Program-made: the position numbers and the translations under genes | Shown here: positions 11,327 through 13,105 of the stretch, piece after piece | Layout of the letters: every line of letters starts with the position of its first letter | Numbering within the stretch: the first letter of the stretch is position 1 | Notes under the pieces: model-generated | What the model saw: only the letters and a program-made list of their open reading frames with translations | Databases searched by the model: none | Told to the model about the DNA's origin: nothing | Sequence record: MN218775.2 | DNA: 39,253 nucleotides | Strand: one strand, 5' to 3' | Origin: Escherichia virus ECG4

Positions 11327-11344
11327 ATGGCTTTTTTTTTTTAA
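11327..11344 (+). other. Apparent authentic gene 4 start codon followed by an in-frame TAA inside a T11 homopolymer
   Basis: AAGGAG RBS, then ATG GCT TTT TTT TTT TAA. The codons after the stop translate to [28 protein letters not shown], matching the T7 gp4A zinc-binding N-terminus. Confidence 0.6.
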
Positions 11345-11410
11345 GAAGAGGATAGCGTATTCCTATATCACACCCTTTGCCCTGACTGTGGGTCCTCTGA
11401 TGCTAATGGT

Positions 11411-13105
11411 GTGTTCTCTGACGGGCATTTGTACTGTTACGCATGTGACCCTTCAGTCGCATGGAAGAAAGGAGACATGGAGTTGACCGAGGGATACACA
11501 CCCTCAGGAGGTAGAAAGCAAGTGAGCAATCTGTTAACGTTCGGCGAGAACGCTGGACGATATGTCCCACTACCAGCCCGTAGTCTAAGCATGGAGATAT
11601 GCAAGAAGTACAGCTACTGGGTGGGTAACATGGGTGGCAAGATGGTTCAGGTCGCTGATTATTACGACAGGTCCGGGACCAAGGTAGGGCAGAAAGTCCG
11701 AGACGCTGAGAAGAACTTCACGGCTATCGGTAGCGTCAAGTCTGACATGCTGTTCGGCTCTCAGCTCTGGAACGGTGGCAAGAAGATAGTCATCACCGAG
11801 GGTGAGATAGACGCTCTGTCTGTGGCTCAGGTGCAGGACGGTAAGTATCCTGTGGTCTCTCTTCCGTTAGGCTCCAAGTCTGCGAAGAAAGCGATGGCTG
11901 CGAACCTTGAGTATCTCGACCAGTTCGAAGAGATAATCTTAATGTTCGACATGGATGAACCGGGTCGTCAGGCCGTTGAGGATGCAGCTCCAGTATTACC
12001 AGCAGGTCGGGTTAAGGTTGCGTTCATCAACGGATATAAAGACGCCAACGCTGCACTTCAGGCCAAGGACTTCAAGGCCATCACCGATGCTATCTGGAAC
12101 GCTAAACCTTTCGTCCCGGCTGGTGTAGTATCAGCGGCAAGTCTGAAGGACCGCACACGGGAGGCAATGCTCAAGGCAGAGACTGAAGGTCTCATGTTCT
12201 CGTCGTGCACAACACTCAACGCGATGACCCTAGGTGCGCGAGCTGGCGAGCTTGTCATGGTGACTTCAGGGTCAGGCATGGGTAAATCTACCTTCGTGCG
12301 TCAGCTACTATTAGAATGGGGCAGGGGCGGTAAGCGCGTTGGCATGGCTATGCTCGAAGAGGCTGTAGAGGAAACAGTTCAGGACCTTATGGGTCTGGAC
12401 AATAACATCCGTCTACGCCAGAACAAGGACTTGAAGCAAGCCATCTTAGAGGATGGACGGTTCGACGAATGGTATGACAAGCTGTTCGGAGACGATAAGT
12501 TCCACCTGTACGATTCATTCGCAGAGTCAGAGGAAGACACCTTGTTCGCCAAGTTAGCCTACATGGTGGACGGTCTCGACTGTGACGTCATACTGCTGGA
12601 CCACATCTCAATCGTTGTGTCTGGCATGGAAGATAACTCAGATGAACGTAAGACCATTGACCGCATCATGACTCGTCTCAAGAAGTTTGCGAAGACGAAG
12701 GGTGTTGTTGTCGTGGTCATATGCCACCTGAAGAACCCGGAGAAAGGTAAATCGCATGAAGAAGGACGACCTGTTTCAATCACTGACCTACGTGGTTCTG
12801 GTGCTCTCCGTCAACTGTCTGATACTATCATCGCCCTTGAGCGAAACCAGCAAGGTGATACTCCTAATATTGTTCAACTTCGTCTGCTCAAGTGTCGTTT
12901 TACGGGTGACACTGGAGTGGCAGGACACCTCGAATACAACAAGACGACCGGGTGGCTTGAACCGATTAGCTTCACTGGCAGCAGCGGAGAAGAGGATAGC
13001 GGCTCGTGGGAAGATCTCGACTTCTACTTGGGACATTTCTTACTTTACGAATTTTTTGGAGGACTTTTATTGCTAAGAAAACTTAAAGCTCGCTACCATC
13101 GGTAA
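11411..13105 (+). CDS. DNA primase/helicase (T7 gene 4 homologue), 564 aa from the first start after the in-frame stop
   Basis: Colinear with T7 gp4 (Walker [36 protein letters not shown]). The N-terminal zinc-finger codons lie upstream, separated by TAA at 11342; the C-terminus runs 26 codons past the conserved ...EDLDF end. Confidence 0.85.

Follow-up and report, generated by a model that had tools for sequence, protein, structure and literature searches.

Background

Gene 4 of bacteriophage T7 encodes the 63-kDa primase-helicase gp4A and, from an internal start, the 56-kDa helicase gp4B. Full-length gp4 is required for growth of T7, and its acidic C-terminal tail ending in phenylalanine contacts the DNA polymerase. 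The form of T7 gp4 that lacks the zinc-binding domain displays helicase activity and does not perform template-directed primer synthesis (PMC2910064).

The window analyzed here, i.e. the whole stretch of 39,253 nucleotides from Escherichia virus ECG4 (record MN218775.2), covers almost the whole genome of a K1F-like phage (Kayfunavirus) related to T7. Gene 4 of ECG4 agrees with its T7 counterpart in gene, gene order and domains, which comprise a Cys4 zinc-binding domain, a TOPRIM RNA-polymerase domain, a DnaB-like helicase and an acidic C-terminus ending in F. Further shared traits are an own promoter, a strong ribosome-binding site (RBS) and a conserved internal in-frame ATG. In contrast to T7, however, codon 6 of the ECG4 gene is TAA and its natural stop codon is replaced by TAC, such that neither of the T7-type termini is encoded as written, whereas relatives including the 99 %-identical Escherichia virus LS3 (version 2 of the record, LS3 v2) display the normal T7-type arrangement at both termini. 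A literature search on ECG4, LS3 or MN518893 retrieved nothing.

Results and discussion

The start of gene 4 as deposited

The original prediction, made from the sequence of the window, was accurate in its description of the site: a strong RBS and ATG 11327 are followed by GCT, a run of eleven T (T11, 11332–11342) and an in-frame TAA (11342–11344), beyond which the zinc-finger codons continue in the frame of the ATG (Table 1). GTG 11411 had also rightly been named as the first possible start after the stop; no ATG, GTG or TTG occurs in the gene 4 frame between TAA and this codon, which lies 3' of the first Cys pair. The zinc-binding motif had been assigned as a whole to the 22 codons following TAA, which holds for the first Cys pair but not for the second one, CYAC (11435–11446), since the latter is located downstream of GTG 11411 and hence outside this interval. 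The conserved internal ATG 11477 is a candidate for the counterpart of the gp4B start and sits at a position other than Met64 of T7.

The T11 run is far beyond chance. From base composition, about 0.005 T runs of at least 11 nt are expected, the next longest homopolymer of the genome measures 8 nt, and none of the five complete relatives checked contains a homopolymer longer than 8 nt. Promoter-like sites, one of them upstream of gene 4, are represented in the whole window by 11 plus-strand matches to ACTATCACTATAGGGA with at most three mismatches (0.26 expected by chance).

Table 1 Features at and around gene 4, promoter-like sites of the window and gene 4 starts of ECG4 and related phages
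Feature	Position	Strand	Remarks
Promoter-like sites (consensus ACTATCACTATAGGGA)	2786, 6417, 8258, 9131, 11259, 17179, 20000, 21012, 25694, 32970, 38651	+	all on coding strand
Phage-RNA-polymerase promoter-like site ACTATCACCTTAGGGA	11259..11274	+	53 nt 5' of ATG; conserved in relatives
Shine-Dalgarno sequence TAAGGAG	11314..11320	+	6 nt 5' of ATG; same in LS3, Peacock and ZG49; also RBS of the HNH ORF in EPr2
ATG, start of full-length gene 4 (gp4A-type)	11327..11329	+	annotated gene 4 start in LS3 v2, Peacock and ZG49
T11 homopolymer	11332..11342	+	11335, 11336, 11340, 11341 and 11342 differ from LS3 v2 (G, A, C, G and G)
In-frame TAA	11342..11344	+	homologous codon GAA in LS3 v2, LS2 v2, EPr2 and BDX03P1; CAA in Peacock and ZG49
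Gene 4 body (primase-helicase), open and intact	11345..13024	+	no frameshift; matches to Peacock gp4, T7 gp4 and Pfam
First Cys pair of zinc-binding domain (CPDC)	11378..11389	+	Cys codons 11378–80 and 11387–89; aligns to CDNC of T7 gp4
GTG, first in-frame start 3' of TAA; start of deposited CDS	11411..11413	+	564-aa product, exact match to WEU75013.1
Second Cys pair (CYAC)	11435..11446	+	Cys codons 11435–37 and 11444–46; aligns to CYVC of T7 gp4
Conserved internal in-frame ATG, candidate helicase-only start	11477..11479	+	AAGGAG 5', spacer only 2 nt (11469–11479 including ATG); motif kept in relatives
TAC at position of gene 4 stop	13025..13027	+	TAA or TAG in relatives; 26 residues added after ...DLDF
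ECG4-private TAA	13103..13105	+	TTC in all relatives; ends extended gene 4 ORF; abuts ATG 13106
Gene 4 start, ECG4			ATG GCT TTT TTT TTT TAA GAA GAG
Gene 4 start, LS3 v2			ATG GCT TTG ATT TCG GAA GAA GAG
Gene 4 start, LS2 v2			ATG GCC GTC GTC GTC GAA GAA GAG
Gene 4 start, EPr2 and BDX03P1			ATG GTG AGT TCG GAA GAA GAG
Gene 4 start, Peacock, ZG49 and UFJF_EcSW4			ATG TCA TAC GAT GAC CAA GAC GAC GAG

Gene 4 product

The protein encoded by the gene 4 body is 96.6 % identical to gp4 of Peacock without any frameshift, and the product of 11345–13024 aligns to residues 7–561 of T7 gp4 (PDB 6n7i) with an E value of 1.8e-233. All four zinc-ligand cysteines are conserved in this alignment. Pfam matches to Helic-prim_T7_N (3e-31), Toprim_2 (1.8e-12) and DnaB_C (2.5e-18), together with the match to 6n7i, demonstrate the presence of the TOPRIM/RNA-polymerase and DnaB-like helicase domains of the gp4A type. 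Promoter, RBS and ATG are thus present, along with 560 of the 566 codons that make up a normal gp4A gene.

The zinc-binding domain is contiguous with the start codon in LS3 v2, LS2 v2, EPr2, Peacock and ZG49; in ECG4, TAA at codon 6 intervenes. At the other end of the gene, where the relatives stop after the phenylalanine, the acidic tail of ECG4 reads ...SWEDLDF and continues with TAC. A phage with the sequence as deposited would possess neither a full-length form nor an acidic tail ending in Phe.

Comparison with related phages

The best match in the phage collection is LS3 (MN518893.2; 39,255 bp), which differs from ECG4 at 322 positions and is 99.2 % identical to it across the gene 4 region. 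The products of six ORFs of the window that are distinctive or deviate from LS3 v2, namely the 564-aa gene 4 product (WEU75013.1, "primase/helicase protein") as well as polymerase, ligase, RNA polymerase, gp15 and tail spike, are exact matches to deposited ECG4 proteins. On this basis, an identity of the window with the superseded LS3 version MN518893.1 was rejected; of the 13 proteins retaining their ".1" accession in v2, 11 are identical in the window, but LS3_09 and LS3_43 deviate. Relative to LS3 v2, the T11/TAA stretch consists of five substitutions within 8 nt, every one of them to T, and four of these five positions are unique to ECG4 among the five genomes aligned. A comparison with the gene 4 starts of related phages, as had originally been proposed, revealed a sense codon for Glu or Gln at the position of TAA in all other aligned genomes. 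The run and the stop codon are absent from every relative aligned out of 197 matching phage records as well as from IMG/VR, which also contains no match to the TCGGAAGAAGAGG... allele; a protein search with the N-terminus of gp4 yielded only four uninformative fragments. LS3 v2 and LS2 v2 share their source and are themselves altered records and thus not clean independent witnesses; independent support for GAA at the stop codon is provided only by EPr2 and BDX03P1, the upstream context of which differs.

The N-terminal 5–6 residues of gp4 vary naturally among the relatives, and a private sequence at this position is therefore not abnormal in itself. The three records originating from one source (sewage, India), namely ECG4, LS3 v2 and LS2 v2, carry three different low-complexity fillers at the same 9–10 nt, which look like an unresolved consensus rather than a conserved element. 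It had been anticipated that changing the run by one T does not restore the frame, and this generalizes to any run length that leaves a T in front of AA, as it will always create TAA. The proposed origin as a homopolymer sequencing error plus a substitution agrees with our reading insofar as a sequence error is concerned, but not in its form, since a block of five substitutions to T differs from a simple miscall of run length.

The gene 4 start as junction of an HNH insertion

EPr2 (a Providencia phage) and BDX03P1 are, outside the sister records LS3 and LS2, the closest relatives for the gene 4 segment (~95 % identity). Both carry a 366-nt ORF for an HNH homing endonuclease (EPr2_0028 in EPr2) inserted exactly at the start of gene 4, corresponding to 815–1180 of the EPr2 sequence compared. 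The upstream sequence, the RBS and ATG GCT at the start of the HNH ORF are the same as in ECG4, and gene 4 restarts inside the 3' end of the HNH ORF. ECG4 accordingly resembles this locus on both sides: the upstream sequence, RBS and ATG GCT are those of the HNH ORF, and GAA GAA GAG GAT AGC GTA TTC CTA TAT CA is common to ECG4 and the gene 4 that follows the HNH ORF. In contrast to EPr2 and BDX03P1, the 366-nt ORF is missing from ECG4, LS3 and LS2, and about 10 nt at the junction differ among these three. They thus possess the HNH-side flank to the left and, to the right, the gene 4 allele associated with HNH, and the disputed bases represent the junction between the two.

This junction may be that of a real deletion, or of an insertion that was collapsed during reference-guided assembly; in either case a poor consensus would be expected there. 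A junction without the HNH ORF was found neither in IMG/VR nor in the JGI metagenomes. A different ORF of 59 amino acids is located at the gene 4 start of UFJF_EcSW4. EPr2 harbours more HNH insertions 5' and 3' of the DNA polymerase gene, near the clusters of ECG4/LS3 differences at 13016–13285 and 15241–15491.

Integrity of the sequence record

Alterations of ECG4 are not confined to the start of gene 4. Across 2,071 nt in and around gene 4, ten sites are unique to ECG4: T11/TAA accounts for four of them and loss of the gene 4 stop codon for one, and two more give rise to the private TAA 13103–05, which interrupts a small downstream gene (13070–13234; homologue of LS3_24 and Peacock_028). Compared to LS3 v2, several small genes of ECG4 lack their start or are interrupted by internal stops.

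The most extensive alteration affects the tail spike ORF (33034–35667; 877 aa), deposited as "peptidoglycan lytic exotransglycosylase". Compared to the intact 968-aa endosialidase-type spike of LI10P1, ECG4 and LS3 v2 display the identical set of 21 frame-breaking indels. Nucleotide identity to LI10P1 amounts to 94 % and protein identity only to 45 %, as translation repeatedly leaves and re-enters the correct frame. Despite the 21 indels, an uninterrupted ORF of 877 codons is annotated in both genomes. Half of the tail spike codons in which ECG4 and LS3 v2 differ (30 of 60) are TGA, TAA or TAG in the relative; at these overwritten stops ECG4 reads TCA, TAT or TAC and LS3 v2 mostly AGA, AAA or AAG. 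An older LS3 protein of 42 amino acids ends exactly at a codon that is now TAC in both ECG4 and LS3 v2, and between 34383 and 34612 of ECG4 stops of a second frame have also been removed. Approximately 550 out-of-frame codons cannot be free of stops naturally; their stops were overwritten once the genome had been assembled.

Genome-wide, the changes private to ECG4 (polarized with five or six relatives) comprise 15 missense, 5 synonymous and 2 nonsense changes as well as 1 start loss, i.e. they are devoid of purifying selection. True divergence from Peacock (~90–93 % nucleotide identity) still leaves most proteins 95–100 % identical. Transversions outnumber transitions among the ECG4–LS3 differences; on this ground, together with the common frameshifts and the overwritten stops, natural divergence was rejected as the origin of the differences between the two.

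Private clustered changes, transversion excess, a neutral-like missense/synonymous ratio and frameshifts common to "different" phages with stops overwritten differently are all shared with database artefacts that arise from consensus errors and post-assembly editing of starts and stops, and no feature of the T11/TAA site deviates from this pattern. T11/TAA is confined to a single record and at odds with the closest relatives of ECG4, and this record contains further features that are either impossible in biological terms or not under selection. In regions in which the phage departs from common relatives, the ECG4 consensus is unreliable, and start and stop codons were altered after assembly.

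Origin of the stop codon

The analysis demonstrates that T11/TAA occurs in a single record only, that this record is corrupt, and that no mode of decoding restores the frame. We consider it probable, at roughly 90 %, that T11/TAA is an error in the deposited ECG4 sequence and not a property of the phage. This reading is based on the private nature of the change, the exceptional homopolymer, the absence of purifying selection, the alterations throughout the record, the intact expression signals and the coincidence with the HNH junction. The true codons 3–6 of gene 4 would most likely be a short sense stretch ending with GAA (Glu), as in LS3 v2, LS2 v2, EPr2 and BDX03P1, and in the real phage translation from ATG 11327 would yield a normal primase-helicase of full length. 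The exact junction of the 366-nt HNH ORF in the closest relatives would constitute the error-prone spot, at which a collapsed insertion or a recombination junction could have led to an ambiguous consensus; the wrong bases may then have entered by reference-guided consensus formation, homopolymer smearing or manual filling.

Readings that regard TAA as real are unlikely even when taken together. According to the original prediction, ECG4 could be a primase-defective variant producing only the helicase form. This natural variant would synthesize the zinc-finger-less protein from GTG 11411 or ATG 11477 and obtain its primers elsewhere, e.g. from host DnaG or transcripts. The conserved internal ATG with its AAGGAG makes a short form plausible anyway, and a short ORF was annotated by the depositors. 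An abandoned N-terminus would, however, not be expected to retain zinc-finger codons, primase domain, RBS, ATG and promoter in perfect condition, five clustered changes to T do not correspond to any natural mutation path, and the missing gene 4 stop buries the acidic ...DF tail under 26 extra residues. As the T7 form without the zinc-binding domain makes no template-directed primers (PMC2910064) and the change is private to one record, we regard such a variant as highly improbable. Stop-codon readthrough, which had also been suggested, meets with the same objections: the change is private, gene body, promoter, RBS and ATG are intact, and the gene 4 stop is lost as well. Of all readings considered, a bypass of TAA by recoding, be it transcriptional slippage or ribosomal frameshifting on T11, readthrough or termination-reinitiation, has the least to commend it and is close to negligible. 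Slippage is known to occur at runs of at least nine T or A, and T11 lies five codons into an essential gene; in common with recoding at homopolymer runs (transcriptional slippage, or -1/+1 ribosomal frameshifting such as in T7 gene 10A/10B or dnaX), a long T run adjoins a stop near the start of an ORF. Unlike in these systems, the frame following the stop is that of the ATG itself, and the stop T(11342)-A-A starts with the final T of T11, which renders slippage useless: enumeration of all run lengths and frames revealed that neither a different run length nor a shift within the run avoids TAA in the target frame, and the other two frames at T11 end at TAG 11353 and TGA ~11484. GTG 11320 is the sole out-of-frame start upstream; it overlaps with the Shine-Dalgarno sequence, and TAG 11353 closes its frame. 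Reinitiation was rejected in the absence of an in-frame ATG, GTG or TTG 5' of the first Cys pair. Termination at UAA-G is efficient in E. coli, which further counts against recoding. The run is also not conserved, being missing from every aligned relative and IMG/VR, and no stimulatory RNA structure was detected downstream (minimum free energy of -17.7 kcal/mol versus a shuffle mean of -22.1, z = +1.35); Rfam gave no matches in the whole window.

A third explanation holds that the bases were read correctly. The record could faithfully reproduce a phage stock that was defective or mixed, for instance one in which complementation sustained a sub-population with an HNH-loss scar. Coincidence of the site with the exact HNH junction of the closest relatives is compatible with this possibility, as such junctions can carry non-templated or rearranged bases. 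Yet each of the three records of common source has its own low-complexity filler of 9–10 nt at this site, non-biological edits pervade the remainder of the record, and a dead essential gene cannot persist as the consensus of a lytic isolate, rendering this explanation very unlikely. As improbable as the helicase-only variant is that T11/TAA truly resides in the DNA of ECG4 as an HNH-loss scar that closes the gp4A frame, in which case the phage would have to manage with a zinc-finger-less fragment and another priming route or with unusually efficient readthrough of UAA. A lesion introduced into the window, the last of the possibilities put forward originally, is unlikely as well: the deposited CDS WEU75013.1 already starts at GTG 11411, which implies that the public record very probably contains the closed upstream frame as well.

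Consequences for use of the record

As biology, the stop codon in gene 4 carries no significance, and the real phage almost certainly possesses an ordinary gene 4. It rather represents a data-quality warning, as start and stop codons cannot be trusted in ECG4 and in the sister records LS3 v2 and LS2 v2. The deposited WEU75013.1 is deprived of half of its zinc finger and bears a spurious tail of 26 residues, and out-of-frame translation accounts for most of the 877-aa tail spike proteins on deposit. Such entries can seed false protein families as well as false "recoding" candidates in automated scans.

Further observations

Compared to LS3 v2 and Peacock, the homologue of LS3_06 (2248–2449) is frameshifted and has lost its start, CTG replaces ATG at 5567, the gene 1.6 homologue (8301–8555) contains an internal stop, an indel is present at the end of a gene 3.8-like ORF (11035–11258), and the gene 5.5 homologue (15471–15764) begins with TGG instead of ATG and contains two internal stops. 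About 80 differences between ECG4 and LS3 v2 cluster between 6400 and 8600, a region covering the dGTPase-inhibitor, DNA ligase and gene 1.6. The DNA ligase of ECG4 is only 79 % identical to that of Peacock, versus at least 95 % for most proteins. The ORF following the major capsid gene (22182–22445), annotated as "hypothetical protein", corresponds to the -1 frameshift extension (annotated as minor capsid protein of the 10B type in Peacock). Just 3' of it, a T8 run (22481–22488) is located, which is kept in LS3 v2.
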